55,124 bases of DNA from a virus (Duplodnaviria > Caudoviricetes), in IMG/VR virus record IMGVR_UViG_3300030104_000130, positions 1 through 55,124 of that record; one strand, 5' to 3'. The notes below the pieces were generated by a model that did not search any database, had not been told where the DNA came from, and saw only the letters and a list, made by a program, of their open reading frames with translations. The position numbers and the translations under genes were made by a program. Shown here one piece after another: positions 521-46,239 of this stretch (the first letter of the stretch is position 1; each line of letters opens with the position of its first letter).

Positions 521-1585
521 CTATCGGGCTGTACCCATAATTCCTGTTGATGTTACGAATGGATTTTCTGCAAATGCCATGTAGATGTATGTATGAGTAT
601 TTTGATTTACCCAACCAAAACTTGAACGCAGTTTAAAGCCATTGCTTAATATATCTAAGTTTGCATTTGCATTGTCATATTCTGCTGCACTTGAGTTTGG
701 ATGTAAGGCTTGGTCAGTTACATTAAATCCAGGTCTTTTGTTATCATACATCATCCAGTTATCACCACTATCACTTGATTTTTTAAAAAGTATAAAAGCA
801 GGTTTAAATCCTGTATACACAAACGGACCATCTGCATTTCCATTGCCGGTGTACTTGCCGAACTTACTGTAGCCTTGTTTTTCTGCGAAACAATAGACTA
901 CATAATCTTCAGTATTTGTATTAACATCACCCGAAGTGTTTTTTATACTAAAAACTGTAGATGTTGGAGATGTTGCATTCCAGTAACCAACTGAGTTACT
1001 TTGTGCCGATGTGTCGTTTAAATATAAGCTATAAGCATTAGATGTTAAATCTTTATGAAAAACAGTCCAGTTAGTTCCTGTTTGATCTCTGTTTTTAATT
1101 ATATACATCGCAGGAGCAACACCTAATCCATGCCCTATTGTTGCTGCTGTACCTGTTCCAGTATATTGAACAATGCTAAATCCAGCATCAGTATTGGCTT
1201 GTACTGTAGAGGTTATTGAGCCATTGCTGTTGGAAGCTGTCGTGCCACCATTGGCTTTCCATAACCAAGAACATTGAGCAGTGCTACTAGAGTTCATGGA
1301 ACTATCACCTGAACCTGCTGTAAAACCGTTAGAATCAAAAGAACTTAAATAATTTGCAAAAGTGCCTTCAGCAGCATTTGAGTTAGATGCTAAATATTTC
1401 GTTACGCCTCTACTACTATCAAATTGATGCCAACCATTTGTATCATTTTGTTCTTTATGCCACATAAAATCTGGTTGCATATCTGAGTTACCATCAAGAG
1501 TGATAGCATTTGTTCCACCATTACCAGTCCATTTTTTAACTTGAAAATGTGCTGATGGATCGTCTATTGCTGTGTACTTACCCAT
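521..1585 (-). CDS. Tail-tip / receptor-binding accessory protein, copy A
   Basis: G/S/T/N-rich beta protein with YTGNG-type repeats, GFKPAF and YIYMAFAENPF motifs typical of marine phage tail proteins; paralog of 52510-53583. Confidence 0.7.
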   Translation of the reverse strand: MGKYTAIDDPSAHFQVKKWTGNGGTNAITLDGNSDMQPDFMWHKEQNDTNGWHQFDSSRGVTKYLASNSNAAEGTFANYLSSFDSNGFTAGSGDSSMNSSSTAQCSWLWKANGGTTASNSNGSITSTVQANTDAGFSIVQYTGTGTAATIGHGLGVAPAMYIIKNRDQTGTNWTVFHKDLTSNAYSLYLNDTSAQSNSVGYWNATSPTSTVFSIKNTSGDVNTNTEDYVVYCFAEKQGYSKFGKYTGNGNADGPFVYTGFKPAFILFKKSSDSGDNWMMYDNKRPGFNVTDQALHPNSSAAEYDNANANLDILSNGFKLRSSFGWVNQNTHTYIYMAFAENPFVTSTGIMGTAR

Positions 1586-3021
1586 TAGGCTGTACCTCCA
1601 TATTCTGCTAAGTTTTTACCACATAATGCGTAGTACCCAGAAGGTGGTGCGTGTTCAAAAGTTCCGTAACCATTGGCATCTGATTGTGCTGAAGATATTG
1701 TTGCACCTGTATAACCCCCAAAATTTACTGTTTGGATACTGCCTTTAGTTTGAACAACAGGTATTGCAAAAATACCATCATCAGTCTGACTTCCCATGTT
1801 ATACAAAGATAAATTTGTTCCATTGGTAACTGCACTACCATCATAATAAAAACTTATTTGGTTATCATCTAAATTTAAAGCAATCCCAACAAACTTACCT
1901 GCTCCACTAGAGTCAACAGTTCCTAAACTACCCGTAATTGACCTGCTTCCACCATTCCATGCAACATAATTACCAGCATCCATTTGCCATACAGCAAGTG
2001 CATTTCCGTTAGTACTTGCTCCTACTTGAACATTATCATAATCTTGTTGAAATGTGTGAAAACCTACATAAATTCTTGCACCATATGTTGCTACTACTTC
2101 ATTGATATAATTTTCAAAATACCATTTACCTTTTGTTACTCCCATAGTTCCTGCATATGAAAGGTCTTGGTTGCCCCCACTTAATCCATATTGAGTTGCA
2201 CCATTTGTAGGTAATTGTACGCTGCTATTAAATCCTGTAAAAAGTGCATTAAGCGTACAAAAATTATTAGTAGGTGTGTCAGTTGATTGATCGGCTGCTG
2301 TTAAATTTACTTTAGTCCAATTAGTATCATCGCCTTTTGCATTTGCTCCTAAATCTGATGCAGTTTTAAAATCTAAGTATGCACTTTGACCGGGGTAACT
2401 ACCTGTGTATTCTTTGGGAATCCATATACCACTATCATCATCATATTCTCCAAACTCTGTGGGTGCTACTGCTAAACCATCTAAATAATTAAATTCTGCC
2501 ATATAACCACTAAAGCCATGATAAGTTGAATCATAAGAACCTATCCTTGCTAATGTGCCAGAATAGACTGCAGTTTCAAAATTTTGTGGTGGATATTGCC
2601 TAGATGCCCAATCTGTGATTTCTGCTCCATTTACATAAACTCTAAATCTATCTGCTTCTGTGCTTTGAGTTGTATCTACTTTCCAAACAATATGATACCA
2701 AGCTGATGTATCTCTAAACTGTTGTGTCGTTGTGCTTCTATATTGAGCAGTTTTACCTATATCTAACCACAGTTCATCTGATGACAAACCAAAACCAATT
2801 CTTACAGCTTCTGAATGAACTCCACCATCCCAAAGCTCTTGTGTACCTCCAAGCTTACTTCTTTTACACCAAAAACTTACTGTAAAAGTTTTATCGTTAG
2901 TGCCTGAAGCATTGGTTCTTGTAAAATACTCGTCATTAGCATCTTCAAATTTTACAGAGTTATCAATATCATACCCAGTCGAGACACTGCCACGATTCAT
3001 TGTGCGTTGTAAAAAAGCCAT
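1585..3021 (-). CDS. LamG/concanavalin-like plus SPRY-like tail receptor-binding protein, copy A
   Basis: FTVSFWCKR, WYHIV, YVNG, GYMAEF (LamG-like); GKWYFE, VGIALNLD (SPRY-like); paralog of 53583-54986. Confidence 0.75.
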   Translation of the reverse strand: MAFLQRTMNRGSVSTGYDIDNSVKFEDANDEYFTRTNASGTNDKTFTVSFWCKRSKLGGTQELWDGGVHSEAVRIGFGLSSDELWLDIGKTAQYRSTTTQQFRDTSAWYHIVWKVDTTQSTEADRFRVYVNGAEITDWASRQYPPQNFETAVYSGTLARIGSYDSTYHGFSGYMAEFNYLDGLAVAPTEFGEYDDDSGIWIPKEYTGSYPGQSAYLDFKTASDLGANAKGDDTNWTKVNLTAADQSTDTPTNNFCTLNALFTGFNSSVQLPTNGATQYGLSGGNQDLSYAGTMGVTKGKWYFENYINEVVATYGARIYVGFHTFQQDYDNVQVGASTNGNALAVWQMDAGNYVAWNGGSRSITGSLGTVDSSGAGKFVGIALNLDDNQISFYYDGSAVTNGTNLSLYNMGSQTDDGIFAIPVVQTKGSIQTVNFGGYTGATISSAQSDANGYGTFEHAPPSGYYALCGKNLAEYGGTA

Positions 3022-3027
3022 ATAGTA

Positions 3028-6000
3028 TTAAGTTTGTGCTAAGTTCTGTACTCTTCCTACTTCTTGCCATACAGAGCCATTGTATCTGAATGAGAAGATA
3101 TCTGTTTTGTTAGCTGTTGCTGTAATTGTTGGTGCTGTACTTGCAGCAAATTCAAAAGCTGTATTCCATGCAACAGTTCTTGGAGTTCCTCCTTGAGCTA
3201 TTTCTATGGAAATAATAGCACCTTCAGTATTATTAGTTGGTGCTGAAATTGTAGTGTTTTCTGTTGTAAGATGAAAAGCATTTGATTTTGCAGCAGCATC
3301 CCAAGCTACAGCATTTGAACTAGATGTTAAAGCTTGTTGAGTTACATTAGCTGCAGCAGTTGCTGTAACAGCCGGAGCTGTTGCTGACGTTGCAAAAGTT
3401 ACAGCGTTTTCAATTTTAGCACCTGTAACTTGATCGTCTCCAATGTGTGCAGTATCAATACTACCATCAGTATAATGTTCACTATCAATTGCATCATCGG
3501 CTATTTTAGCACCAGTTACTGCATCAGCAGCTATTTTAGCAGTTGAAACTGAGTTATCACTTGGAGTTCCTATTGCGACTTCTTCAGCATTATAAGCTGT
3601 AATAACTCTACCATTTAAAGGAGCTTCAGATAATGTTAAAGTAGTTCCTGAAACACTATAACTGTTATGTGCTTGGAATACACCATCAATAAAGACCATT
3701 AAGTTATTTTCACTTGATGGAGCTGAAGACAATGTAAAGGCTGTAGTACTATCATCACCTGTAAAGATGTTAGTAGAAAAAGAACCACTTCCTCCTCCAA
3801 TGCTACCCCAAGCATCTGTATAACCTTCAAACTCTCCTGTAGTTGAGTTATATCTAAAATAACCTGCTGCCGGACTTCCCGGTCTTTGTGCTGTTGTACC
3901 TACTGGTATATGTATTGAGTCTGTATTAGAACCTAAGTCTAATGAAACATCCGGAGATGCATTACCAATACCTACACGATTGTTTGAGCTATCAACTTTT
4001 AGAGTTGATGTATCTACAGCAAGGTCTCCAGAAATTGTTAAACTTGATAAAGTTCCAACACTTGTAATATTTGTTTGAGCTGCTGTAGCTATTGTACCTG
4101 TTAAATTATTAACAATTAAATTACCAGCAGCATATCCTGTAGCACTAGTATTTACAGTTGTTGAAGGTACAGTTTGAGTATCACAGAATAATCTAAATGT
4201 ATTATCTGTAGAAGCATCATAATATAATCCAGCATACTTAGTAGTACTAGATTCTACATACTTACCATAAAAACCAAAGTCTGTAGTGTTTCCTGTATTC
4301 TCATCTGTTAAACCTGTAAAATTAGAATCACTAACAACTGAACCTGTTTGTGTAGTTGTACCAGTAACAGTTAGGTTTCCGGCTACACTTAAGTTATTTG
4401 CAATTGTAATATCATTAGCTAACTTGTCACCTGTAACTTGGTCGTCAGCAATATGAACTGTGTCAATTGCACCATCAGCTATTTGAGCTGAATCAATAGC
4501 ATCGTCTGCTATCATAGAATTTACAATGACATCAGAACCTATAACTAAATCTATTGTACCATCACCATCTTCGTATGTTGCTGCAATACCTGTTTCAGTA
4601 TTACTTGAAAACATAGCACCAACAGTGTCTTGTACAACTTCTGAAAGGTCTATATTTGCTGTACCATCAAAAGACACACCATGTATAGTTCTTGCAGTTT
4701 CTAAAGCTGTAGCAGTAGCTGCGTTACCTGTAGTACTTTGATTAAGTGTACCAACTGTTAAATCAATTGTACCATCACTATCTTCATATGTAACGGTAAT
4801 ACCTGACTCAGTGTTAGAACTAAACATAGCTCCAACAGTATCTTGAACAACTTCAGTTAAATCTATATTAGCTGTACCGTCAAATGATACTCCATGAATT
4901 GTACGTGCTGTTGCTAATGCTGTAGCTGTTGCCACATTACCAGTTGTTAAAGCTATAGTACCTGCAGTAGAAGGTAAAGTTACAGTTGGATTACCACTAA
5001 AACTAGCATGTGCAGGTGCTTGTAGTCTTAAATAGTGAGCATTATTTGATTCACAATAAAAATCTACATAAGACTGAGTACCACCATTTTTAATTTTAAT
5101 ACCGCCTTGTTGAATAACTACACCATTTGTAGAGCCACCTCCGACTCCAATAGAAGTAGTAATTTCTAATGATGCTGGTAAAACAAAGTCTAATGTATTA
5201 TCTGAATCATCATAAGTTACTGTAATGTTTGTTTCTGTGTTAGAGCTAACCATAGCTCCTACAGTATCACTAATTGTTTCTGCTAGTGTTGTACCGTTCA
5301 CTGTAATTGCATCAGCTTCTAAAGTACCATCAATGTCTACATCTCCTGAAATATCAAGTGTAGCTGCATCTAACTCACCACTAATAGTTATGTTTCTACC
5401 ACCAGTTATATCTTTGTTTGAATCTGTAACAATAGCTTTAGAAGCTTCTACAGTTCCTGCTGTTGAAACATCTACATAGTTAAGTTCTGTTGTAGTGGCT
5501 GTAACACCATCAAGTAAATTTAATTCTGTAGCTGTGCTTGTAACACCATCAAGAATATTTAATTCAGCAGCAGTAGATGTTACTCCGTCTAATATATTTA
5601 GTTCTGCTGCAGTTGATGTAATTGTTGTTCCATTAAAGTCTATTGCATCTAAGTAAGCTACACCATCAATATAAATATCTTTCCATTGTTGTGAAGAACT
5701 ACCTAAATCATAAGTATTATCATCATCAGGAATAATGTTAGAATCAACATCAGCACCAAATACTACGTTATCAGTAGCTGCATCACCCATAGTGATTGTA
5801 CCACCGTTAAAAGTTGTAGTACCAGTTACTGTAAGATTACCTCCAACTGCTACGTTCCCAGTTGTAGTAATAGAATCTATATACGCATCTTTAAAATATA
5901 ATGAGCTTGTACCTAAATCAACATCACTGTCTGTTATAGGAATAACTGCTCCGTCTTGTATTCTTATTTGTTGTACAGGACTACTAGAGACTTCTACATA

Positions 6001-7833: not shown

Positions 7834-8601
7834 TTAAAAATATCTTCTATCGTCTGTCATAGTACGAGGAGTAGGATTAATCAAATTAGATTTCATACTT
7901 CTCAATGACTTTTTATAATCATCCATAGCAAAAGCTGCTTGTTGTGGAGATTCTTTAAACTGCCAAACATAATATCTTGTTTTAGCTGTTATGACATTCG
8001 TATATTGTTCTGGAAATACAACTGTATCTCCATGTGCTGTAAGTTTTGTTGGCTTATCAAAAGCATAAAAATGTACATTGTAAACTTTATCAGGGATTGG
8101 ACTCAATCCAAACTTTCTAGAATCAGGAGATTTAATTACAAATTTAGGTTCTCCAAAAGATTGTGACCCTGCATCATCTGCATTTTCACTATCTCTATAA
8201 TATCTTTTCCAGTCTGCTAAGTTTAAAAACATTAACCCTTTTGATATAAAGGGAGCTGATTCACCACTAACATTAATTGTAGTTAAATAAAAATCATCCC
8301 AGTCTATAGAACCAAAATCATCTTGAACGCTTGAGCTACTAGCTTTTAGTTCGTACCACCTAGTACCAGCTACTGTAGCTACTGTTACGTTTCCATAGAA
8401 GGGATCAGTTGCACCACTTTCACCTACTGCAAAAAATGGTAACTGTGGTTCTTCATTTGCTATATCAAATATAGATTTATTAATAGCATCCTTGACAAAC
8501 TGTTGAAGTCCTACAGCACTTGAAAAGTTTGCAGAAGTCAATGGTATTTCATTGAGTTCTCTTAGTACTTCATTAGTTAAATCAAGATATGTTGTTGCCA
8601 T
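7834..8601 (-). CDS. Head-tail adaptor / tail tubular protein A-like
   Basis: TYLDLTNEVLREL N-terminus, LSPIPDKVY motif; position downstream of capsid. Confidence 0.7.
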   Translation of the reverse strand: MATTYLDLTNEVLRELNEIPLTSANFSSAVGLQQFVKDAINKSIFDIANEEPQLPFFAVGESGATDPFYGNVTVATVAGTRWYELKASSSSVQDDFGSIDWDDFYLTTINVSGESAPFISKGLMFLNLADWKRYYRDSENADDAGSQSFGEPKFVIKSPDSRKFGLSPIPDKVYNVHFYAFDKPTKLTAHGDTVVFPEQYTNVITAKTRYYVWQFKESPQQAAFAMDDYKKSLRSMKSNLINPTPRTMTDDRRYF

Positions 8602-9140: not shown

Positions 9141-10112
9141 TTAGTCAATACCGTAGAAAGCACCTACAATTGCTTCGTCTCTTAGTACTTTCGCACCATA
9201 GACATGCAATCCTCTAACGATATCACCGAAAGAACTTGGGTCTCTTAAGACTTCAGTTGAGATGATAGTTTGAGCAGTAGCTGTAGATGAGATATGTCCA
9301 GCCAAACATTTACCAGCAGCATTAGATGTTGCAGCAATATTGTTTGATTTGTACATGTCAAATCCACGTAGTTTTCCACTTGATACTAAACCATTTCTAA
9401 TTGAACCTTGACCTGCGTTGAAGTCTACAGATAGCAATTTAGAAGATGATTGTCCTAAAACTTCGTAGAAGTCAGGACTTGCAACAAACCAACGACCTTC
9501 TTCAGGTACGTTCTGTTCGTCTAATAGTCTTGCCATTCTAGCCATAAGGTCTAGTGGGTCTGTTTCGCCAGACTGACCTAAGTCAGCAGCACCAGAACCA
9601 TCATATACTCCAGCACCTAAGTCTGTCGCACTGTCAGCACCTAACACGTGGTTGGGTGAAGAAGCAGACAAACCAGCAAACATGACAGCAAGAACAGCAG
9701 CATCATATGAATCTTTCAATGCATATGCAGCAGAGCTTGAAGCTACTTCTTTGAAGTTGACGTGTGACATTTTAGTCTCAATATCATCTACGATGAATTT
9801 GAAAGCTTTAGCACTGTCAACAACCAAAGTAAGTTCTTGGTCTGTTAGTTTAGTTGCAGTAGTATCGCTACCTCTTGTGTAATCTGACACAGAGATAACA
9901 GGTTCTTTGATAATCTTTACAGAGTCTCCAAAAGCAGAAATTTCACCAGTATAATCGGTGTTTGTAATAGCTTCTACAACCGAGGACTTTCTGAAAAAGT
10001 TTAAAACCTTTTTAGAATAAATCGAAGGTAAGAAGAAACTATTATTCTGTCCACTTACAGAGTTTGCAAAGTTAGCATCGGTATCAGTTGAGGGTTCAAA
10101 AAATTGAGCCAT
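9141..10112 (-). CDS. Major capsid protein
   Basis: 323 aa after scaffold; FLPSIYSKKVL, ITNTDYTGEI..GDSVKI, VPEEGRW, DIVRGLHVYGAKV motifs of podoviral coat proteins. Confidence 0.9.
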   Translation of the reverse strand: MAQFFEPSTDTDANFANSVSGQNNSFFLPSIYSKKVLNFFRKSSVVEAITNTDYTGEISAFGDSVKIIKEPVISVSDYTRGSDTTATKLTDQELTLVVDSAKAFKFIVDDIETKMSHVNFKEVASSSAAYALKDSYDAAVLAVMFAGLSASSPNHVLGADSATDLGAGVYDGSGAADLGQSGETDPLDLMARMARLLDEQNVPEEGRWFVASPDFYEVLGQSSSKLLSVDFNAGQGSIRNGLVSSGKLRGFDMYKSNNIAATSNAAGKCLAGHISSTATAQTIISTEVLRDPSSFGDIVRGLHVYGAKVLRDEAIVGAFYGID

Positions 10113-10143: not shown

Positions 10144-11010
10144 TTATGATTTTGCAATCCTGCCTTGTTGCATGGCTTCACTTATCTCGGCTTCATACCG
10201 ATCAAATTCATCCATAGACATTTTTGCAATCTCCTTCTCTGTCCAAACTTTCTGTTGCACTGGTTCAACTGTTGTTGTTTTAGTCGAGACCATATCAGCA
10301 GCAGACTTCTTGGACTTTTTAGAATTTGACTTCTTCGGTTCAACATCCATACCAATATCTTTCTTAAATAAATCTAAAGCTCTTGAAGCTAGATCAGCAT
10401 CGTCAGCATTGTTGTATACCCAATCTTGGATAGACTTAGGCTGCTCTTTTGCCCAACCATGAAAATCATCACTATTGCGAATATCTTCAAAATCAGGATG
10501 CTTATCCATCAATCGCTTTTCAGCATCTTTACGAACTAATTCTTGTTCACGTTGCTGTAGTCTTTCAAGTTTCTCTTTTAAGTCTTTAGATTTCTCTTCA
10601 GCCTGTAAGTGAGAAACAGTTTCTACAACTTCGTATACATCAGGATACTCTTCTCTAAACTTTTCAAGTTCCTCTGGAGATTTAGGAGCTACATAGTTAG
10701 GTCTGTTTTCAGCAGCCTTTTCTAATAACTCTTGTTCTCTAGACTTAAATTCGTTTAGTTTAGAGTCATAATGCTTTTTCAAGTCATCGTAACGTTTCTT
10801 GTAGTCTGGTCGCTTATAAGGTTCGTCTTTTGGAGTCTCCTCTTCAGCTACCTGTTCTACAGGTTCACTAGTTGTTGCTTCTTTCTTCTTAGCTTTTGGC
10901 TTCTCAAAAAAGAGTCCGTCAGCAGTATCAAAGTTTTCTTCAACATTTGTGTGCCATGATTTTTTCATATTGTAAGGATTGGCATTTTCCTCTTGTACTT
11001 CAGTAGTCAT
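10144..11010 (-). CDS. Capsid scaffolding protein
   Basis: Charged helical protein, YKKRYDDLKKH and HPDFEDI motifs, directly upstream of capsid. Confidence 0.75.
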   Translation of the reverse strand: MTTEVQEENANPYNMKKSWHTNVEENFDTADGLFFEKPKAKKKEATTSEPVEQVAEEETPKDEPYKRPDYKKRYDDLKKHYDSKLNEFKSREQELLEKAAENRPNYVAPKSPEELEKFREEYPDVYEVVETVSHLQAEEKSKDLKEKLERLQQREQELVRKDAEKRLMDKHPDFEDIRNSDDFHGWAKEQPKSIQDWVYNNADDADLASRALDLFKKDIGMDVEPKKSNSKKSKKSAADMVSTKTTTVEPVQQKVWTEKEIAKMSMDEFDRYEAEISEAMQQGRIAKS

Positions 11011-11145: not shown

Positions 11146-11880
11146 TTAGCTTCTAACGTATTTTTTAGAAGGGTCTTGCATATCTCTTCGTAATGCAATA
11201 CTTATTTCTTTTTCTCCTGTATCCATTATAGGACGAGAAGAACTGTCAGTTGTTTGTTTTTCTACAATAATTTTCTGCGTAGCAGGTTCATCAGTAGATT
11301 CTACAACTACATTTTCTTCTTCTTCAGGTTCACCGCCAACCGCTAAACCTTGTCTTTCATCTGCTCTAGCTTCAGCATCTTTCATCATTGACATTAATTT
11401 GTCACTTCCGATTTCTTCTACAGCTTTTGCAGTAAAGACAAATTCTCCATCAGATAACCTTGCGGGTATACTGTCAGAGACTCCTGAACCCGGTCCTTCA
11501 ACAGGACCAGACCCAGCAAATTCTTGTGCAACGTCTATGACTTTATCAAATATCATTGATAGTCTATCGTTGCCTTGTAACGCATCCATTAGAAAATCTT
11601 CTTCTTCGCTATCTAATGCTTCGTCCAATATAAAATCTAAATATTCATCTTCCATTTCATCATCTGGAAGCATGTCTTCTTCTTGTTCTTCAGGCATTGA
11701 ATCTTTTTTCATTTCTTTTTTTGGTGCAATCATAATAGCTACACCGCCTTCTTCATAGCCCATACGTTCAACAACTTCAGGTGCAACTTTTTTTAAAGCT
11801 TCTAAACCTTCATTTGGCATTTCTACTTCAGTGCCATCTTTGTATTTAATTCTTATTTTGTCGTCTTGTAATAAACTCAT
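11146..11880 (-). CDS. Acidic head-region protein with GPGSGVSDSIPARLSDGEFV domain (candidate maturation factor)
   Basis: Motif usually seen in tape-measure protein C-termini; lies between portal and scaffold. Confidence 0.6.
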   Translation of the reverse strand: MSLLQDDKIRIKYKDGTEVEMPNEGLEALKKVAPEVVERMGYEEGGVAIMIAPKKEMKKDSMPEEQEEDMLPDDEMEDEYLDFILDEALDSEEEDFLMDALQGNDRLSMIFDKVIDVAQEFAGSGPVEGPGSGVSDSIPARLSDGEFVFTAKAVEEIGSDKLMSMMKDAEARADERQGLAVGGEPEEEENVVVESTDEPATQKIIVEKQTTDSSSRPIMDTGEKEISIALRRDMQDPSKKYVRS

Positions 11881-12110
11881 GTTTCCTCTTTTCTATTGAT
11901 TGCTTCTTTAACCTGCTCCGGTAGCTGCTCTAAGCGTACCAGAGAATTGATCTTCCCCTGCAACCGGAACATTTCCGATTCCGATGTTGCCACCACCAGT
12001 GCCTGTAACTCCAAGGTCTTGAGGTTGTGCAGGTGTTCCTTGAAGGCTTCCCATACCAGTTGGTTGCCCGTTAGGGCTTTGAGCTTCAGGGCTAATTGTT
12101 TGTCCAGCAT
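11877..12110 (-). CDS. Small helical protein overlapping the portal 3' end
   Basis: AGGA RBS; amphipathic RLQGKINSL helix; ATGA coupling to next gene. Confidence 0.6.
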   Translation of the reverse strand: MLDKQLALKLKALTGNQLVWEAFKEHLHNLKTLELQALVVATSESEMFRLQGKINSLVRLEQLPEQVKEAINRKEET

Positions 12111-14109
12111 TTTGCATTCCTATAATTTGTGCCATAATTGCAGCTTCTTCAGGATCGTTGAGTATTTCATCAGGGTCTAAGTCTAAGCTGTAGGCAAGTT
12201 CACTTACAAGTTTAGAAATTTTAACAAATGGAGCTATAGCAGGATTTTGTGCAGTTTGTAAGAATGTAGTTAATCTTTGACTACGTACTTCTTTTTGCAT
12301 CAAGCTATTAGTTCCAGTAGCTTTAACTTCTAAATCACCATTGACATCTAACCCACCTTCAAAGAACTGCATGTTCCATTGGAAGAAAGCTTCTCCAAGA
12401 GGTCTTAATAAAAAGTCGTCAAGGTTTTTAACGACTGTTTTAATATTTAAACTTGATGCACCTAACAACATAGACATACCCGAAGCAGTCCGTGTCATAC
12501 TTTGTACACCTGTTTGTCCGTGTGAATAACTAGGAATACCTGTTTGTTCATCTGCAAGTTGTCTAAACTTGTCAAACATCATCATATTTTCAGGTGCTGT
12601 ATTAGGAAACTTCAAACCATGTATAGCTTGTCCGGGCATACCAGCTTGTCTTCTAAATATCTTACCCGGATATATTTCCATAGATTGTCCACCAACTAAC
12701 GCAGACTCATCTACATCAAACACCAAAGACCCAGCCATTGCTAGGTTATCTACAGCCATACGTGCATGACCATTCATAATTTGTTGGCTATCATCCATGT
12801 TTTCAGCTACACCAATACCAAAGAAGTTATAAGGATTTCTTTCGTATGGGAAAGCGTGGTAAGGTATTCTGTAAGGAGTAAATGGATTAATTACTGCTCT
12901 TAATACATTATCACCACATATCCACGCATTAATTTGAACTTCATCTAGATCATCAATATCATCTGCAAGTTCTATACCGACTTCACGTGCATACTCTGCA
13001 TCCATGATTCCCCAGTATTCAAGAACTTCAAAGTTTGTTTGATAGTCTTCATCAGCTCTTGCATCATCTTTTAAATGTGACTCAAAGCTTTTCTCTTCGT
13101 AGTTAGCTCCCATCTGTAAACAATTACGGATAGCATCCTCATCAAAGTAAGGCATGTTACGAAGTTGTCTAAGTTGAGATTTGTTTAGTTTGTGTCTATG
13201 GATAACATACTCACACTCTTCAATGCTAGTAGCTCCGGGGTCAGGATAAAAATCCCAACAACTAACAAACTCAATTCTAGGTACTCTAACTTCTAATGGA
13301 TTATAATTTCTTTCACCATCTTCACCAGTTTCCCACTTGTGAAGTTTTTTATTAAAATTAAATGGTCCTTTTACAATCCCTGTACCAAGTAAAGAAGATT
13401 CTAAAAGAGCATTTCTAATTTCTGATGAACCTTTAGATTCATCTATTTGATCATGAATAAGTTTTTCCATTCTCCTTGCAGCTTTTTGTGCTGGAGAAAT
13501 TTCTAAAGCTTGAGGGTTAGGACTTAAACCTTCGACTAATTGATCTTCTACTTGATCTTCTAAAGGTGTTTCAAATACTCCTTTGTTAAGTGTAGCTCCG
13601 GGTTTTAAAACTTTACCGTCACCTTCGTAACCAACATCATATGGGTTATCTATTCTATTACCAATATCGTCTGGTAATTCACCTCCACCCATAGGACTTT
13701 CTAATCCGGGTGCACCTGTTTGAGTATCTAAATGTGCGTTAGCTAATTCGCCTTCAGGTATTTTAGTTTCAGCAATACCAATTGGAAACTTACCTGTACC
13801 AAAGATTACATCAACAAGTTGACCAAAAGCAGCAAGTACTTTTGTTTTAGTAATCTTTACAAAAATACGAGACTTTTCTGAGTCTCTAAACTTAACAGAC
13901 TTGTTATAAAGTCCTCTGTAGTTTTCGTATGATTTAATCCAACGTAATTCATCTGAACGTCTAGCATCTTCAGATACAGTAAATCTTGATTTTATAATAC
14001 CAACAAGATTATTTTTTTGTTCTATTTCAAGAGCAAGTTCTTTACCAGCTTCACCTTCTACTTCTTCATAAAGATTATCAGCGTTTAAAAATGTATTTTC
14101 TTTTTCCAT
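11908..14109 (-). CDS. Portal protein
   Basis: 733 aa after terL; LLGTGIVKGP, WDFYPDP, PYNFFGIGV, RTASGMSML motifs. Confidence 0.9.
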   Translation of the reverse strand: MEKENTFLNADNLYEEVEGEAGKELALEIEQKNNLVGIIKSRFTVSEDARRSDELRWIKSYENYRGLYNKSVKFRDSEKSRIFVKITKTKVLAAFGQLVDVIFGTGKFPIGIAETKIPEGELANAHLDTQTGAPGLESPMGGGELPDDIGNRIDNPYDVGYEGDGKVLKPGATLNKGVFETPLEDQVEDQLVEGLSPNPQALEISPAQKAARRMEKLIHDQIDESKGSSEIRNALLESSLLGTGIVKGPFNFNKKLHKWETGEDGERNYNPLEVRVPRIEFVSCWDFYPDPGATSIEECEYVIHRHKLNKSQLRQLRNMPYFDEDAIRNCLQMGANYEEKSFESHLKDDARADEDYQTNFEVLEYWGIMDAEYAREVGIELADDIDDLDEVQINAWICGDNVLRAVINPFTPYRIPYHAFPYERNPYNFFGIGVAENMDDSQQIMNGHARMAVDNLAMAGSLVFDVDESALVGGQSMEIYPGKIFRRQAGMPGQAIHGLKFPNTAPENMMMFDKFRQLADEQTGIPSYSHGQTGVQSMTRTASGMSMLLGASSLNIKTVVKNLDDFLLRPLGEAFFQWNMQFFEGGLDVNGDLEVKATGTNSLMQKEVRSQRLTTFLQTAQNPAIAPFVKISKLVSELAYSLDLDPDEILNDPEEAAIMAQIIGMQNAGQTISPEAQSPNGQPTGMGSLQGTPAQPQDLGVTGTGGGNIGIGNVPVAGEDQFSGTLRAATGAG

Positions 14110-14115
14110 ATATTA

Positions 14116-15762
14116 CTAATAACCAAATGTAGAATCAGTAGGTCTGTATATATCCGACTTAATTCTAAGCATTCGTTGATGAGGATGGTCCATTCTTGGT
14201 CTACTCATAATCATGTATCTTAACGCATCATATGCGTGATCTGCAGCATGAGTATCCACATCCTCCGGATTACTCTTTGATAATGGTAGTCCTTGCAATT
14301 CTTTAATCAGATTTGGACAAGTATTAAAGATTTGCACCTTTGGTCTTCCAGTATCTCTATTAGGTCTTAAATACTCATGTATTTGTACCTTACCAGCTTG
14401 TCGATTCTTATCAGCTCTACGAAGTTTATGACCTTTTTGAATCAATAACTCACCTATGGTAGGACCAGTATAACCAGTCCTTGACCAAGCTGCTGTATCT
14501 AACACACCAGTTATGGATTTAATTTCTGACTCTTCCATTTGAGTCAAAGTGTCTCCTAGTGCTTCACCTGTAAGACCTTTTTTGTATAGTTCTCTATATA
14601 TAATGAGGGTCTTATCCTCGGGGTCTATTGCACCCCAGAGACAGCAACTTTCAGAAGCGTAACCATAGTCAATACCTTTTAACCTTTCCCACCATGACGG
14701 TAAGTCAAAGGGTGGTATTACATGTATGGACGTATCAAATTCTGCGAATGCTGCACCTTCTGAAATATCCCAGTTACCTTCCAACAACTGTTTACGTTGT
14801 ATGGCTGGTAAGGATTGCAACATCCTTTCGTATTCACCGTCTTCAGCAAGAAAAGGATTGTCCTGTAATCTTGCTGGTATAAACTTTCTTGTTAGACCGT
14901 CAGTACCACGAAAAGTTTTGTTTTCTTCTGCTGGTTCTACGTATCTTTTCTTTACCCATTGTGCTCCTACTCCACCCGGGTTAGCTGTACATCTTAAATA
15001 AGTTTTTAACTCAGGGTTGGTGGTTCTTAGCCTTGATGCTAAATAGTTCCATCCAAACTCTGTAGGTAAGTGAGTTATCTCATCAAAACCTATCCAACTG
15101 TACGCTTGTCCTTGGTAACGATATACATCTGCATCTCGTTCCAAAAACCCAAACTCTATCTTTGCTCCACTTGGGAACTGCCATAACTTTTCTACTTCTT
15201 TAAACTTAGCACCTTTAAAAGCTCTAGGATAAAGTTCTCGAGACTTATCTATAAGTTCTCTTAGTTCTGGCATAGACCTTCTAAGTATCAAAGCTCTGTG
15301 CTCTGAAATATGGCAGTAACGCAATGGGTCTATTAACATTGCAAAACTTTTACCACCACCTGCTGCTCCACCGTAAAGAACATCTTTTTCGGATGCAGCT
15401 AAGAAATCTGTTTGAGGTCCTTCGTTAGGCATAAATGCCACATGAGAACCTGTAGTATCTAAATGTTTTTGTATCGGGTCAGGAAGTGTTTTACTTTCTT
15501 CCTTAGTGATAACATTAGATGTTAAAACTTTTTCTTCTTTGTCAAGTTCTTTCTTGACTCTTGCTAAACTTCTTGTTAGCTTCTGAACTTTCTTTGACTT
15601 TTTAGTTAATTTATTTTTAGCTCTTATTGCTAATTGTAAATCTGAAAGCTCGGAATTCTTTGGTCTACCGGGTTTTTTTTTCGGAGTACCATCTTTCTTT
15701 AGTATATAGCTCCCATCAGGGTTTGTCAAGTAATTTTTAGGATTTTTTTCCCAATCTTCCAT
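14116..15762 (-). CDS. terL: Terminase large subunit
   Basis: Walker A YGGAAGGGKS, Walker B IGFDE, TANPGG, nuclease GIDYG...DHAYDALRY. Confidence 0.95.
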   Translation of the reverse strand: MEDWEKNPKNYLTNPDGSYILKKDGTPKKKPGRPKNSELSDLQLAIRAKNKLTKKSKKVQKLTRSLARVKKELDKEEKVLTSNVITKEESKTLPDPIQKHLDTTGSHVAFMPNEGPQTDFLAASEKDVLYGGAAGGGKSFAMLIDPLRYCHISEHRALILRRSMPELRELIDKSRELYPRAFKGAKFKEVEKLWQFPSGAKIEFGFLERDADVYRYQGQAYSWIGFDEITHLPTEFGWNYLASRLRTTNPELKTYLRCTANPGGVGAQWVKKRYVEPAEENKTFRGTDGLTRKFIPARLQDNPFLAEDGEYERMLQSLPAIQRKQLLEGNWDISEGAAFAEFDTSIHVIPPFDLPSWWERLKGIDYGYASESCCLWGAIDPEDKTLIIYRELYKKGLTGEALGDTLTQMEESEIKSITGVLDTAAWSRTGYTGPTIGELLIQKGHKLRRADKNRQAGKVQIHEYLRPNRDTGRPKVQIFNTCPNLIKELQGLPLSKSNPEDVDTHAADHAYDALRYMIMSRPRMDHPHQRMLRIKSDIYRPTDSTFGY

Positions 15763-16383: not shown

Positions 16384-16582
16384 ACTCTTTTTCGTCCATA
16401 CATTTTCGCCATTCATCTAAGATTATCTCTTCAGGATAAGGAGCATAATGAATGGCTTTACATTTTTCAAATTGTTTTCGCCACTCGTTAGGATCGTATC
16501 TATCGTTCCATTCTTTTTGTTTTACTTCAGGTGTATGCACACAACCTGTTAACAAACACAAGACTATTAACTTTTTTACCAT
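16376..16582 (-). CDS. Small lipoprotein
   Basis: MVKKLIVLCLLTGC: basic N-region, hydrophobic core, LTG-C lipobox. Confidence 0.65.
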   Translation of the reverse strand: MVKKLIVLCLLTGCVHTPEVKQKEWNDRYDPNEWRKQFEKCKAIHYAPYPEEIILDEWRKCMDEKEYG

Positions 16583-17106
16583 TTAACTCTGTTAGCCCAA
16601 TAAGCTGCCGACATTTTGCCTTTGGCAATGTTCTTTCTGTGTCTAGCTTTAAAAGACTTTCTTTTCATTTTTGTTTTACGAGACTCTCCTGCTTTAGGTT
16701 TACCTGCAGTCTTAGCACCTTGTTGTCCAAATCGTATTGTTTTGATTTTTGTACCTTCTTTTGCAACAACAATATGTGACTTAGTAGGATGATTGGGAGT
16801 ACGCTTGGGTTTGTTGTAACCACTGACTCCTGCTCGTTTTAATCTGCTGTCAGCTTTACCACCTTTAGCCATTCTAAACTTAGCAGTTTTTTCTGCAATC
16901 TTTTTAGGTTGAGGTGAGTGTTGCTTACCGGCAGCTTTATCTGCTTTTTTCTTTGCTGATGTTCTTGAATATTCTTCTGAAGTTAAAGTTTCTCTAGCTT
17001 TCTTTGGTAAATATCTTTCACCTGTTTCGCTAGACTTTTTACCAGACTTAGTTCCCCAGTCTTGTTCACCCCATTTCTTTAGAGACTCTTGTGGTTTCTT
17101 TAACAT
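16576..17106 (-). CDS. Very basic two-domain protein
   Basis: QESLKKWGEQDW..GERYLPKKA domain, MAKGG linker, then GYNKPKRTP..IRFGQQG..SAAYWA domain. Confidence 0.7.
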   Translation of the reverse strand: MLKKPQESLKKWGEQDWGTKSGKKSSETGERYLPKKARETLTSEEYSRTSAKKKADKAAGKQHSPQPKKIAEKTAKFRMAKGGKADSRLKRAGVSGYNKPKRTPNHPTKSHIVVAKEGTKIKTIRFGQQGAKTAGKPKAGESRKTKMKRKSFKARHRKNIAKGKMSAAYWANRVKW

Positions 17107-17333
17107 TACTTGTATCCTCCACCAGCTTTCTTGTAAGCCTTGGCTAGGGCTTGGGCTTTACGGGCAGACCATTGACCGGCTGCAGTACCGTGTGAAGCTT
17201 GTGATTTTATGCGTTGAAATATTCTTTTACGTAGTCCGGGCTTAGTATAGTTACCTGCTTCGTTGACTCGTGACTTAGACTTTTTCTTTTTAGCCTTACC
17301 ACCTTTTCTAAGTTGTAATCTTTCTAATAACAT
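17106..17333 (-). CDS. Basic protein, DUF5872-like N-half
   Basis: NYTKPGLR...GQWSARKAQ.LAK.YKKAGGGY. Confidence 0.65.
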   Translation of the reverse strand: MLLERLQLRKGGKAKKKKSKSRVNEAGNYTKPGLRKRIFQRIKSQASHGTAAGQWSARKAQALAKAYKKAGGGYK

Positions 17334-41737: not shown

Positions 41738-41974
41738 TTATTTATCCAGTGTTAAAGTTGTTTCAAGTAAATCGTTTATAGAATCTAATAAATACTCTGG
41801 TACATCTTTACCAAGTATATCATCTTCGTTGTATGCAACCATGTAAGACTCTATAAGGTCTTCATACAATGGTCTAAAATCTTCTCGCTTTATCCAAGGC
41901 TCGTTACAAATTGTACGAGCTTTACAATCTATACGATAAGCTTTGTCTAATTGTTTCTCTGTGTAAAGTAGCAT
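41738..41974 (-). CDS. Hypothetical protein
   Basis: TAATG coupling; operon packing. Confidence 0.6.
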   Translation of the reverse strand: MLLYTEKQLDKAYRIDCKARTICNEPWIKREDFRPLYEDLIESYMVAYNEDDILGKDVPEYLLDSINDLLETTLTLDK

Positions 41975-44900
41975 TAGTCAATTATATTTAATAATTTATT
42001 TGTTGTTTCAATTCTTCTGTCTAAATGTGGCTCACTTGGTTTTTCATATTTTTCTGAAAATTGAATTGCTACTTCATCTGGTGTGCCTTCTTTAAAAATC
42101 CTTTGAAGTTCTTGTCTATCATCTGTATTAAATCCCATTGCTTCCTCATTGCCTTTTAAAACTTCGTGCATAAATTGAATTTGAGATTCCGGTGTATCAT
42201 TTAATTTATTTTTATCTCGCCAATCATCATAATATTTTTTTTGAAAATCAAATTGGAATAAACCATATCCATTACCATTACGTTGTTTAGTTGTATGATC
42301 GTAAGTATACGCTGTTTCAACACCTATGTTGCCTAAGATTCCAGCCCTAGCATTTTTAGAATAGCCTAATTTTTTTAGATAATTATTTATTTTTTGTATT
42401 CGTGCTTGAGATTCATTACCACCATTATTAAATCCTAACCTATTCATTTGTTCTGCATAACTCATACCACCCAAATCATCGCTTTCTCTGTCTTTTGGGT
42501 CTTTCTTTACAAACGATACAGGGTATTCGTCTTGAACTTCTCCACCTTCATCAAAAGGTCTGCGTAATTTTTCAAATTCTGTTCGTCTTACAATGTTAGG
42601 TTCATCACTTAATTCTTCTAAATGAATACCATATTCCGTATCATTAACTACTGGAATAATCAATCTATTATAAACATTAATAAATTCTCTAGCAGGAGTA
42701 GGTTTTAATACAGACACTACAGCACCCTCATAATCACTAGCTTCTAAATTTTTACTAACTTTCATAGGAACTTTTGTTAAAGAGTCTACCTGTGATAAAA
42801 TAGGAGATAGATTTACAATTGGACTTTTACTACCAGAACCAGTCCAGTATTGAAAAGTTCTTAAAAATTTCTCAGCTCTCCAATCCGCAGCTCCAGATAA
42901 GTTTACAGCTTCAGCCCACCATTTTTCACTAAATCTATCTGGTGCGTTTTTTTCATAATACTCTTGAGCTGGACTTGCCATAATTTGTAACTCTCTTATA
43001 CCACCATAAATAGCTGTACTACCTAAAAGTTTAATAGCAAGTTTCATGTCTCCGTCTTCAACTCTTCTAATTAACGTGTTCATCTGAACTGATTTTGCTT
43101 GTGCCCAAGATAAAAATAATCCCATAGATTTAACATAAGGATTTTTACTTTGGTTAAATAACATTCTATTTCCTGCTGTTGGAACTAGAACATCCCTATT
43201 CATTGTTTTGTTTCCAGCCTTAACCAAAATACTTTGACCAATAGAATCATCAAAAGCATCAGTAATCGTATCAAACTTATTAAGATAAGTTAGTTCTTTT
43301 TTAGTTAATCCTTTGGAGTTCAATTGATTTGCTACAGCTTTTGAAACTTTTTTACTTGTAGCATATCTTTTTGCTAATTTAAAACCATCCTCAATACCTG
43401 TGTTAAATGCCCATCTTGCAGCAGCATCGGTAAGTGGTATCATACCATTATATCTAAAAAATTTTTGTGTTGCATCTACAACACCTTGTTCAAAGTTTGT
43501 TGTTGGATGATTACCAGATGCTAATAACGCATCTATTTCTTTAGATTTCATAGAGGTTCGATCAGTAGCAATACCAAGTTTTCTAGCAAAATCTCTATCT
43601 CCTCTCCATCTTGCAAGTAATGCTGTAGAAGCTGACCCAATACTAGAGTTTGTAAATGGTTGGACTAAATCTCCAAGCTGCGAAATAACAGCACGAGGTA
43701 AGAAAGTTGTATTGGCTAAAAATGTAAGTAATGCCATAGAATTTTTAGACATATCTGACACAGGGCTTGTTGCTCCGTGTACTCCAAAGTAAGCATTCGT
43801 AGAATCAATAATTAATTTTCGTTTTTCTTTATATGCTTTTTCACTTATTTTTCCTAGCTCTTTTTGCTTGTATAAATCTTGGAAAAATACTTTCATTCGG
43901 TCACCACGCTGCCCAAACTTACGTGCAAATTCTACACCCCGGGTTGTATTACTTACCCATTTATCTAAAACTTGAACCAAGTTTGTTTCTAAATAAGGTT
44001 CTAATATCTTAATAGCTTTTGGGTCTTTAAAAAATCTTTCTCTTTCAAAGTTTTTAAGATATGGAACTCCTTTAAAAATTGGCTGTGCTCCTTCTATATC
44101 AAACAAAGTTTTTTGAGACTGACCAGTCATATTTTCATAAATTTCTTCTACTTGTGCGTTTAGTTTATTACCTTTTAATTTAGGCTTTTCTACTTTTAAA
44201 GCTTGGCGAATTGCTTTTTTAAATCCTGTGGGATTTGACATAATTTCTCTACTATAAATTTGTGGTAATCCATAGTTAGCAATTTGTTCAAAATCAATTC
44301 CAGCTTGTTTGGCATATTTAACAACATCAGCTTTAAACACTTCAACATTTGCTACAAGTTGTCTAACATTTTTAATATTTTCGGGAGTTAAATTAAATTC
44401 TTTAATTAAATTTTTCTCTGTATCTAATTGTCTTACAATTTTAAAAGCTGCATTCATTTCATTTTCGTTTGCATTTTTTAAAACTTTTGCAATTCTACCA
44501 GAGAACCAAACATTAAAAGAATCTGTTGCTTGTTCTGCACTTATAATTGATTTTTTTCTTCCGTCTAAAACAGTAAATAATGTTCTAGCAAAAGTTTCAT
44601 TTGGTCCACCATGTGCAATGTTTCTAGTTGTTATATTACCGGATGTCCAAACTTTTAAAAAGTTATGAAGCCCAACCGCAGCAGAATTATTTAAAAATCC
44701 AAATGCTTTTTCTTTAGAATCTTTTGTTAAGTATGGAGTTTTTTCAATCATTCTACTCATTCCACCTAACGCTAAACCAGCAGCCATAAAAGAATATTGT
44801 GAAGTATTATCATCTTCGTCACCAACAAACGTACCAATACTATAACCTAAACCACCACCAAACAATGGTCGAACAAATCCATCCATAATGTTAAGTAACA

Positions 44901-46239
44901 TGCTTTCACTTATAGGAATATTGTTTTGTCTAAGACCTTTTAGAGTAGATTCAACTAATTCAACTTGACCATCTGCCATTTGTCTCATTAAATTTGGTAA
45001 CTTATTTTTAAGAAAATCAGTTGCTTCTTTATCTTTCTTTTTAAGATTTGAAAATTTTTGTGCAGATATACCAGCTAACCTATATTGTTCTGCTTTACTT
45101 ACTTTGGTTCCTTTTACAACAACATCAAGTTGGGACATAACTCTATAACCATCTTCATCTACAACGTCAGCTAATAATTTTTTAGCGTTATTAAAATTAT
45201 CTACGTCAATTTGATATTTTTTAACAATTTGATTTAGATAAGTAGAACTTTCAAGTTGTTTTAAAAGTGGTGCAACATCGGCACTAATTTCAGGAACAAC
45301 AGAAGCAAGCTGTTCAACTTCTTCATTTGTTAATTTTGGAGCCTGTGTATCTTTTGCAGAACTTTGTACAATAACATCTTCTCCAGAATCATCAACTTTA
45401 CCAAGATTTATATTTTTATCTTTTGGACCATACATCTTATTAGCAAGTACAGTACCTCCTAATGTTGACAGACCACCCAAACCTGCAGCAAAAAATACAT
45501 TGCTTGGACTAACTTCTCCGTGATTTGCATATTCATATATAGATATGTCTACAGCACCAATTCCAGCACCTATTCCCGTTGCTCCAGCTTTACCAACTTT
45601 TGCAATCTTTGCCCAAGGAATTAAAAATGTTAGAGGGTCTACTAGTGCAGTTGATACACTACCAGCTATAACTTCTGCATCCCTACTAAACTTTGTAAAG
45701 TCTTTACCATACTTTGTTTTCATTAAATTATAAACTTTATCAACTCTTTCTTTAGCTAAATCTTCTACATTTTGTTGATAACTTTTATTATTACTTAACG
45801 TTAATCCACCAGCCTTAATTAATCTAAAAATATTACCAGCAGTCCATGTTTCTAAACGTGTACCTAATTCAAATTTTTCTGCAGATGTTGGTTCAATCGA
45901 AGTAGGTGTTGTATTATCAATAACAATCCTATCATCATCATATGTATTAATAGCGATAGATTTTTTAAAGGCAGCATAAATTCGATTGACATCTTGAATT
46001 TGCTGCTCTTTTGTTTGAGGTATAATTTCTGGAGAAAGAGGTTCTTCTTTTACTGAGACTGTAGGAATAGTTGCTTCTTCTTCAATAGATTCAATAGGAG
46101 TTTCTTGAACATCTTGTTGCATTTGTTCAAGTTTTTCTTTTTCTAATCGTCTACGTCTTTCTTCTTCTGTTTCAAAAACATCAGGGTCTTTAGACGTAAC
46201 CGTTTGTTTAAATATATCATATATTCGATTAGATTCCAT
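41974..46239 (-). CDS. Large internal virion (ejection) protein with C-terminal phage tail lysozyme domain
   Basis: 1421 aa; hydrophobic Gly-rich helices; AGILGNIGVE..GYGLFQF..QIQF..FSEKYEKP. Confidence 0.75.
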   Translation of the reverse strand: MESNRIYDIFKQTVTSKDPDVFETEEERRRRLEKEKLEQMQQDVQETPIESIEEEATIPTVSVKEEPLSPEIIPQTKEQQIQDVNRIYAAFKKSIAINTYDDDRIVIDNTTPTSIEPTSAEKFELGTRLETWTAGNIFRLIKAGGLTLSNNKSYQQNVEDLAKERVDKVYNLMKTKYGKDFTKFSRDAEVIAGSVSTALVDPLTFLIPWAKIAKVGKAGATGIGAGIGAVDISIYEYANHGEVSPSNVFFAAGLGGLSTLGGTVLANKMYGPKDKNINLGKVDDSGEDVIVQSSAKDTQAPKLTNEEVEQLASVVPEISADVAPLLKQLESSTYLNQIVKKYQIDVDNFNNAKKLLADVVDEDGYRVMSQLDVVVKGTKVSKAEQYRLAGISAQKFSNLKKKDKEATDFLKNKLPNLMRQMADGQVELVESTLKGLRQNNIPISESMLLNIMDGFVRPLFGGGLGYSIGTFVGDEDDNTSQYSFMAAGLALGGMSRMIEKTPYLTKDSKEKAFGFLNNSAAVGLHNFLKVWTSGNITTRNIAHGGPNETFARTLFTVLDGRKKSIISAEQATDSFNVWFSGRIAKVLKNANENEMNAAFKIVRQLDTEKNLIKEFNLTPENIKNVRQLVANVEVFKADVVKYAKQAGIDFEQIANYGLPQIYSREIMSNPTGFKKAIRQALKVEKPKLKGNKLNAQVEEIYENMTGQSQKTLFDIEGAQPIFKGVPYLKNFERERFFKDPKAIKILEPYLETNLVQVLDKWVSNTTRGVEFARKFGQRGDRMKVFFQDLYKQKELGKISEKAYKEKRKLIIDSTNAYFGVHGATSPVSDMSKNSMALLTFLANTTFLPRAVISQLGDLVQPFTNSSIGSASTALLARWRGDRDFARKLGIATDRTSMKSKEIDALLASGNHPTTNFEQGVVDATQKFFRYNGMIPLTDAAARWAFNTGIEDGFKLAKRYATSKKVSKAVANQLNSKGLTKKELTYLNKFDTITDAFDDSIGQSILVKAGNKTMNRDVLVPTAGNRMLFNQSKNPYVKSMGLFLSWAQAKSVQMNTLIRRVEDGDMKLAIKLLGSTAIYGGIRELQIMASPAQEYYEKNAPDRFSEKWWAEAVNLSGAADWRAEKFLRTFQYWTGSGSKSPIVNLSPILSQVDSLTKVPMKVSKNLEASDYEGAVVSVLKPTPAREFINVYNRLIIPVVNDTEYGIHLEELSDEPNIVRRTEFEKLRRPFDEGGEVQDEYPVSFVKKDPKDRESDDLGGMSYAEQMNRLGFNNGGNESQARIQKINNYLKKLGYSKNARAGILGNIGVETAYTYDHTTKQRNGNGYGLFQFDFQKKYYDDWRDKNKLNDTPESQIQFMHEVLKGNEEAMGFNTDDRQELQRIFKEGTPDEVAIQFSEKYEKPSEPHLDRRIETTNKLLNIID

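Follow-up and report, generated by a model that had tools for sequence, protein, structure and literature searches.

A tape-measure-type module in a head-cassette protein of marine podoviruses, possibly a packaged minor head or ejection protein

What is a protein that resembles the C-terminal region of tape measure proteins (TMPs) doing between the portal and scaffold genes of a phage? The question is raised by an open reading frame of 244 aa, P0001, at positions 11146-11880 (minus strand) of a 55,124-base record that CheckV classifies as a complete virus genome; the window analysed here is this whole record. The first-pass annotation had recognised a stand-alone domain between portal and scaffold at this position, where a head protease might be expected, and had likened it to the C-terminal region of siphovirus TMPs such as lambda gpH. 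It further proposed that the domain reads or cuts a motif consisting of a hydrophobic residue, two variable positions and two glycines (h-x-x-GG), in cis in TMPs and in trans in this phage. The location is confirmed by our analysis, with the portal on one side and a scaffold-like gene on the other, and the quoted string corresponds to residues 121-183 of P0001.

The gene is located in a run of structural genes on the minus strand. The large terminase (14116-15762) is followed by the portal (11908-14109; Pfam SU10_portal, E 1.2e-26), which lies directly upstream of P0001, and a scaffold-like gene (10144-11010; phrog_13678, function not annotated) lies directly downstream. The major capsid gene (9141-10112, 323 aa) comes after the scaffold-like gene, and an SU10-type adaptor (7834-8601) follows, with nozzle-like and fibre genes next in order. 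The structural genes show about 70% DNA identity to those of Pelagibacter phages HTVC103P, HTVC104P and HTVC115P, and more distant kin are found in Puniceispirillum phage HMO-2011 and the roseophage CRP group. Synteny was inspected in the 80 best of 538 IMG/VR loci carrying P0001 relatives. The portal was directly upstream in 64 of the 66 loci of this sample with at least 800 nt of upstream sequence, and the scaffold-like gene was directly downstream in all 76 loci with at least 1200 nt of downstream sequence. The same position is held by gp81 of HTVC104P (433 aa), which carries the TMP-type module at its C-terminal end, and by gp49 of HMO-2011 (762 aa), which carries it at its N-terminal end. 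In marine podoviruses of the HMO-2011/HTVC103P type, the P0001 gene is a constant element of the head cassette. A small ORF of 77 aa (11877-12110, minus strand), homologous to HMO-2011 gp50 (BLASTP E 2e-7), is also present between portal and P0001; it shares the final ~200 nt of the portal ORF, read in a different frame, and terminates in the region of the P0001 start codon, and BLASTP detected no similarity to gp7, which occupies the same position in SU10.

P0001 is an acidic protein (pI 4.2; 63 Asp and Glu against 28 Lys and Arg). It contains no hydrophobic stretch of at least 12 residues, i.e. free of D, E, K, R, H, N and Q, whereas lambda gpH and JBD30 gp46 possess a hydrophobic segment before the C-terminal region. 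A first h-x-x-GG motif, G-Y-E-E-G-G, is found at residues 41-46 (11743-11760, minus strand); its E44, G45 and G46 do not vary among 33 aligned relatives. An acidic helical region (residues 63-120; 11521-11694, minus strand), nearly invariant across the family, leads into the module (residues 121-183; 11332-11520, minus strand), which is composed of F-A-G-S-G, a Gly-rich loop, a core, two helices and G-L-A-V-G-G. For the core (residues 135-148; 11437-11478, minus strand), which has G-E-F-V at its end, AlphaFold2 predicts a short beta-hairpin. The C-terminal tail (residues 184-244; 11149-11331, minus strand) has one short predicted helix at 226-233.

The family to which the protein belongs is large, with 6638 relatives of 134-427 aa matching at E ≤ 0.001 and 1131 further matches among proteins of 428-2000 aa. 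In the 33 aligned relatives, which are 64-89% identical overall, residues ~70-185 are almost invariant. The length of the relatives varies from 102 to 790 aa, and the N-terminal part ranges from nothing to more than 500 residues. Searches with P0001 gave no Pfam family at E ≤ 0.1, Phage_Mu_F included, no NCBIfam model and no protease PHROG, and the TMP core domains (Pfam TMP_2, TMP_3 and PhageMin_Tail) are absent from this protein of only 244 aa. Pfam searches with HMO-2011 gp49 and nine long relatives (611-790 aa) revealed nothing meaningful, and gp49 has no match in PHROGs. The P0001 family is without annotation in Pfam, NCBIfam or PHROGs. In the ESM Atlas the nearest clusters of P0001 are unnamed viral proteins; crAss cargo protein 1, the nearest cluster with a Pfam assignment, was rejected as a candidate on its score of 0.84, which is under the level of a usable lead.

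The likeness to TMPs can be established by different types of sequence comparison. Thirteen PHROG families match residues ~109-236 of P0001 (best E 1.1e-10). The annotation reads tail length tape measure protein for eight of them and endolysin for one, and the remaining four are listed as unknown. Only two PDB sequences match, namely Douge gp16 (E 1.7e-8), at residues 961-1002 and 1410-1451, and JBD30 gp46 (E 0.012), at 1019-1057. By BLASTP, P0001 residues 145-183 align with lambda gpH 754-782 (E 3e-4), and an HMM of the module built without lambda matches gpH 753-777 (E 1.9e-4); a second module HMM was trained with lambda included, and its match to lambda, which is circular, was left out of the evidence. 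An hhalign comparison of the P0001 family with a metagenomic TMP gave a probability of 96.8% over 51 columns, in which the module alone aligns. The resemblance to the TMP C-terminal region, lambda gpH included, that the first-pass annotation had put forward is thus upheld by PHROG, PDB, BLASTP, HMM and hhalign results, and the module likeness of P0001 to TMPs is real and not due to chance. In lambda gpH the module covers residues 733-782, a region other than the one described by Pfam Tape_meas_lam_C (gpH 627-701). No Pfam or NCBIfam model covers the module, and no family library describes it.

The aligned unit of about 65 aa consists of h-A-x-G-G, three residues, G-P-G-T-G-T-S-D-S-I-P-A-x-L-S-x-G-E-F-V, two successive helices and F-A-x-G-G. 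Only a Glu-aromatic-hydrophobic triplet is universal across the carriers of the module; lambda and HMO-2011 have other residues in place of the core Ser-Asp-Ser, and JBD30 has Asp instead of the Gly before the Glu. A module search of 1.84 billion cluster representatives yielded 5496 matches at E ≤ 0.001, including 942 at E ≤ 1e-10. Among the best 150 of these 5496 matches, 147 are proteins of 102-643 aa and three are giant TMPs (2334, 2766 and 3816 aa). Such giant metagenomic TMPs carry Pfam TMP_3 or PhageMin_Tail together with SLT or NlpC/P60 domains, and there are four module copies in each of the three, compared to two in Douge gp16. The modules of the giant TMPs adjoin the muralytic domains, with an SLT domain at 1599-1704 after a core at 1555, and an NlpC/P60 domain at 3627-3695 preceding a core at 3723. 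The module is also found in gp159 of the cyanomyophage S-SCSM1 (L086, 2165-5017), a virion protein annotated 'lysozym' that is encoded next to baseplate-hub genes, and in Bellamy gp12 (L087, 3008-5407), annotated only as hypothetical. With TMPs, the S-SCSM1 'lysozym' protein and Bellamy gp12 as carriers, the known carriers are tail-lumen or hub proteins, and every annotated one is a tail-lumen or hub protein expelled into the host envelope. In the T4-like cyanomyophages S-SCSM1 and Bellamy, the module protein measures 800-950 aa, and its gene adjoins that of the tape measure and comes after those of the baseplate hub.

The position of the module relative to the C-terminus is similar in P0001 and TMPs. 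The distance from core to C-terminus is 99 residues in P0001 and also 99 in lambda gpH, and it is 93, 94 and 101 in the three giant TMPs. In lambda and JBD30 a hydrophobic Gly/Ala-rich segment is followed by h-A-x-GG, the module, h-A-T-GG and 75-76 residues to the C-terminus, and in P0001 the number of residues after the second motif is 65, counted from A180. Lambda gpH (733-853), JBD30 gp46 (1019-1158) and Douge gp16 therefore share with P0001 the module itself, the flanking h-A-x-G-G motifs and a similar distance from core to C-terminus. The difference is that P0001, with its 244 aa, belongs to the head cassette of a podovirus and has no long tail to measure. When six TMPs were compared with a profile of 196 family tails, the scores were negative everywhere and the best local matches lay off the TMP C-termini, so that the visual alignment of the P0001 tail with TMP C-termini is only suggestive.

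Structure prediction yielded models of low to middling confidence. The pLDDT was 45 when whole P0001 was modelled with AlphaFold2 using 33 relatives, and 66 for the 91-residue module with 147 sequences. The latter model predicts for the module a helix and a Gly-rich loop, then a hairpin of two strands at the L-S-D-G-E-F-V turn and finally two helices. A Foldseek search of the PDB with this model gave no match at E ≤ 0.001, and VIA-align across the PDB reached at best a Z of 2.6. Against BFVD, Foldseek mainly retrieved TMPs and uncharacterised viral proteins; the top rows are at 30-50% sequence identity, and these matches therefore look sequence-driven. A complex prediction with three module copies scored 0.30, where the mark is 0.42, and speaks neither for nor against self-association. 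In none of the solved TMPs is the module region resolved, and the last 32-42 residues alone are visible. For JBD30 gp46, residues 1022-1066 were described as a hook, predicted to comprise a hairpin and two helices, and the authors proposed a role for it in holding the TMP in the baseplate (PMC11445458). These residues are the module, and our independent AlphaFold2 model predicts the same elements as present in the hook.

The h-x-x-GG motif brackets the module in general, as the first-pass annotation had noted for P0001 itself. In the 12 module copies of the giant TMPs it is present on the N side of all 12 and on the C side of 11, and lambda (F-A-T-G-G and Y-A-T-G-G) and JBD30 (F-A-S-G-G and H-A-T-G-G) have it on both sides as well. 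Within the P0001 family, the N-terminal part comprises 0-7 repeat units delimited by h-x-x-GG. The longest relatives (P0302, P0353, P0283, P0172 and P0129) contain three to six tandem units of ~100-130 aa, each with an x-x-x-G-G-L-L start, an acidic turn, a short conserved G-S-I-V-K-K-like stretch and then a helical segment. A set of 167 non-redundant N-terminal extensions contains 531 GG dipeptides, compared to 203 ± 13 after shuffling. Those with a hydrophobic residue at -3 number 252, against 58 ± 7.6 for shuffled sequences, and none of 500 shuffles reached 252, although these figures overstate independence since the 167 sequences are related to one another. The local pattern around GG is [K/Y/F/M]-[A/Q]-E-G-G-[L/S/I]-[L/I/M/V]-[D/S]-[D/E], and the starts of short family members coincide with the residues after GG in longer ones.

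It is tempting to explain a conserved domain at this place by a role as head protease, particularly since no prohead protease is recognisable elsewhere; for Pfam S78, S14/ClpP, S77 and S49 there were indeed no matches in the whole record. A head with a 323-aa capsid protein and a separate scaffold gene needs no protease, as in P22- and T7-type assembly, and the absence of a prohead protease is thus to be expected. With prohead proteases of the S78, S77, S14 and S49 families, P0001 shares only the gene position between portal and scaffold or capsid genes. The suggestion of a head protease acting in trans on the motif finds no substrate among the head proteins, since the GG dipeptide is absent from the major capsid, scaffold-like and adaptor proteins. 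This lack of the motif in capsid and scaffold proteins indicates that the module is not a head-maturation protease. Cutting by the module itself is not supported either: the AlphaFold2 models, of limited confidence, show no protease-like fold and have no Foldseek match in the PDB at the threshold given above, catalytic-type conservation is lacking, and two to four copies can occur in one TMP. A role of P0001 as prohead protease is thus not supported, in view of the absence of a family match, of conserved catalytic residues and of a substrate motif, and the notion that the module is a protease is likewise unsupported.

There is no TMP gene in the window, which agrees with the first-pass annotation, even though two putative ejection proteins match parts of TMP PHROG families. 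The putative ejection block is located at 37.9-51.6 kb. A protein of 1421 aa (41974-46239, minus strand) is probably the large ejection protein, and its residues 1261-1409 are matched by phrog_9570, a TMP family. It has two h-x-x-GG motifs just before its C-terminal domain, at residues 1229 and 1270 (F-D-E-G-G and G-F-N-N-G-G), the G-F-N-N-G-G being positioned directly before a lysozyme-like domain. The last ~150 residues of this protein resemble a tail-lysozyme-type domain. A GG motif is also present at the N-terminus of a 694-aa protein, and a 286-aa protein (48648-49508, minus strand) matches TMP phrog_167. The 286-aa protein has an amphipathic, very lysine-rich N-terminus followed by Gly-rich and hydrophobic segments, and in charge it is the opposite of the acidic P0001; the neighbouring 694-aa and 598-aa proteins likewise have basic N-termini.

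The presence of all annotated module carriers in the tail lumen or hub, the TMP pieces in the ejection proteins and the 99-residue spacing together suggest that P0001, packaged as a minor head or ejection protein, reuses the terminal module of TMPs in a non-enzymatic role. We favour this reading over the others, albeit tentatively and with somewhat less than even confidence. The protein would be assembled into the procapsid together with portal and scaffold, would stay within the head or the portal-tail channel, and may exit ahead of or with the DNA, like a TMP. The module could then be a small docking or 'hook' element in which the two Gly-Gly motifs enclose the Gly loop, the beta-hairpin and the pair of helices. 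This element might adopt its fold only in contact with a partner, for instance the cell envelope, the exit channel or another ejected protein. Its h-A-x-G-G motifs would serve as junctions and, in TMPs, possibly also as processing sites. That the monomer is predicted to be largely unstructured (by the pLDDT values of the whole protein and the module) is what may be expected for a protein that has to thread a narrow channel.

Several observations argue against a role in ejection. Pfam and PHROG searches revealed no similarity of P0001 to known ejection proteins, nor to minor head proteins of the SPP1 gp7/Mu F type. The P0001 gene is about 20 kb away from the putative ejection block if the record is circularly permuted. 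The P0001 tail has no profile similarity to TMP C-termini, and the hhalign match is confined to the module. The ejection or internal virion proteins of T7 (gp14-16) and P22 (gp7, gp20 and gp16) are packaged in the head and expelled via the tail to aid DNA entry. With these proteins and with SU10 gp20-24, P0001 would have the proposed life history in common; the Pfam and PHROG searches gave no match to a characterised ejection protein. SU10 is related to this phage in its portal and adaptor, but its genes for the ejection proteins gp20-24 come after those of the tail, whereas P0001 is encoded in the head cassette. Proteins of the SPP1 gp7/Mu gpF type are encoded right after the portal and probably enter the procapsid through the portal; P0001 shares only the position after the portal with them and lacks a Phage_Mu_F domain at the threshold given above.

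The position of the gene between portal (64/66) and scaffold-like gene (76/76) could also be explained if P0001 acts only in assembly, as an acidic accessory scaffold or a portal-incorporation protein that is expelled before or during DNA packaging, with the module and GG motifs mediating transient protein-protein contacts. The long acidic helical region, the low model confidence and the highly variable length of the relatives are compatible with such a role, and the N-terminal part of the SU10 scaffolding protein is likewise strongly acidic. On the other hand, the other annotated carriers of the module are tail-lumen or hub proteins instead of scaffolds, a separate scaffold-like gene is already present, and residues 70-185 are near-invariant, which is unusual for scaffolding proteins. 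We consider an assembly-only factor unlikely, yet it is the best of the alternatives to a packaged or ejected protein.

More doubtful, but with interesting consequences, is the possibility that module and h-A-x-G-G motifs form a self-contained processing cassette which directs cleavage just before A-x-G-G, either autocatalytically or by presenting the site to a protease. This would occur in cis in TMPs, and in P0001 in cis or on motif-bearing ejection proteins, which the stand-alone podoviral form would process or escort. The one TMP cleavage site that has been mapped by experiment is that of T5 pb2, for which a cut after R1127 was established by mass spectrometry (PMC10038345). In the T5 sequence A-E-G-G-M-M directly follows R1127, which fits the GG motif pattern, and there are 92 residues from the cut site to the C-terminus. 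For lambda gpH, processing near the C-terminus had been claimed by the first-pass annotation, and a 2025 paper places it in a Gly-rich region, i.e. near the module, with gpH* of ~78 kDa and with site and catalyst stated to be unknown (PMC12617516). A cut after F733, before A734 of the first A-T-G-G, would give computed fragments of 79.8 and 12.5 kDa; the second candidate, a cut after Y778, would give 84.6 and 7.7 kDa and fits the reported masses less well. The T5 site before A-E-G-G and the correspondence of 79.8 kDa to gpH* suggest that the motif may mark processing sites, and the idea that it represents a junction that can be a processing site is a lead worth testing. The proximity of modules to SLT and NlpC/P60 domains in giant TMPs, the G-F-N-N-G-G before the lysozyme-like domain of the 1421-aa protein and the start of short relatives at residues after GG of longer ones could be understood in the same way.

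The case for a processing cassette is weakened by the fact that T5 pb2 is missed by two local module HMMs and shows no BLASTP similarity to the lambda C-terminus. It was accordingly rejected as a member of the module family, and the link to T5, with its mapped cut at h-A-x-G-G and preceding residues that reportedly anchor the TMP in the opened hub, rests on a seven-residue motif alone because homology to the module is not statistically detectable. Furthermore, conservation is not of the catalytic type, the Glu-aromatic-hydrophobic triplet being the only universal element, Foldseek and VIA-align comparisons with the PDB gave no fold match to any peptidase, and the capsid and scaffold proteins are without the motif. 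If such a cassette did exist, it would turn giant TMPs into polyproteins that release muralytic and channel-forming pieces, and would explain the cleavage of both lambda gpH, with F733/A734 as predicted site, and T5 pb2. In T5 pb2, the segment anchoring in the opened hub (L004, residues 1085-1127) includes S-S-G-E-L-S-Y and reaches up to the A-E-G-G site. It loosely resembles a shortened module; the two module HMMs gave no statistical support for this resemblance.

Least probable of all is a module directed at the cell envelope, with binding or degradation of peptidoglycan or membrane of the kind proposed for T5 pb2C: the T5 fragment starting at the A-E-G-G site is reported, in work cited in PMC10038345, to have a metallopeptidase motif and muralytic activity, modules are associated with muralytic domains in TMPs and hub proteins, and one PHROG match of P0001 is annotated as endolysin, but P0001 has S-D-G-E where T5 has H-G-T-E and thus lacks both the H-x-x-E motif and a His for metal binding, module-bearing TMPs possess separate genuine SLT or NlpC/P60 domains, and the module, at ~65 residues and poorly predicted in its fold, is small for an enzyme.

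Regardless of the exact function of P0001, a defined module is common to TMPs and a podovirus head-cassette protein, and this sharing supports the view that common parts are used in building both the ejection proteins of short-tailed phages and the tape measures of long-tailed ones. With the thousands of relatives and module-bearing cluster representatives listed above, the protein family is very large, and a preprint ranks the phage groups that possess it within the top five by abundance in ocean viromes. A full-text literature search for the core strings gave no relevant paper, and a search for a conserved motif or cleavage in TMPs gave nothing specific beyond papers on lambda and DT57C. The JBD30 paper mentions the module region solely as the predicted hook (PMC11445458), and the podoviral form that stands alone, its constant location in the head cassette and the repeats delimited by the motif appear to be undescribed in the searchable literature. 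The occurrence of the motif at the mapped T5 site provides a concrete, testable prediction for the cut site of lambda gpH.

Two further features of the genome deserve mention. Upstream of the terminase region, at 16576-17333 (minus strand), there are two small, lysine-rich and very basic ORFs of 176 and 75 aa. Similar pairs of tail-fibre-type genes are found at both ends of the record, at 521-3021 and 52510-54986 (both minus strand). The products of these pairs (354/478 aa and 357/467 aa) match the same PHROGs (24898/19943 and 27411), and the two pairs would adjoin if the record is circularly permuted.
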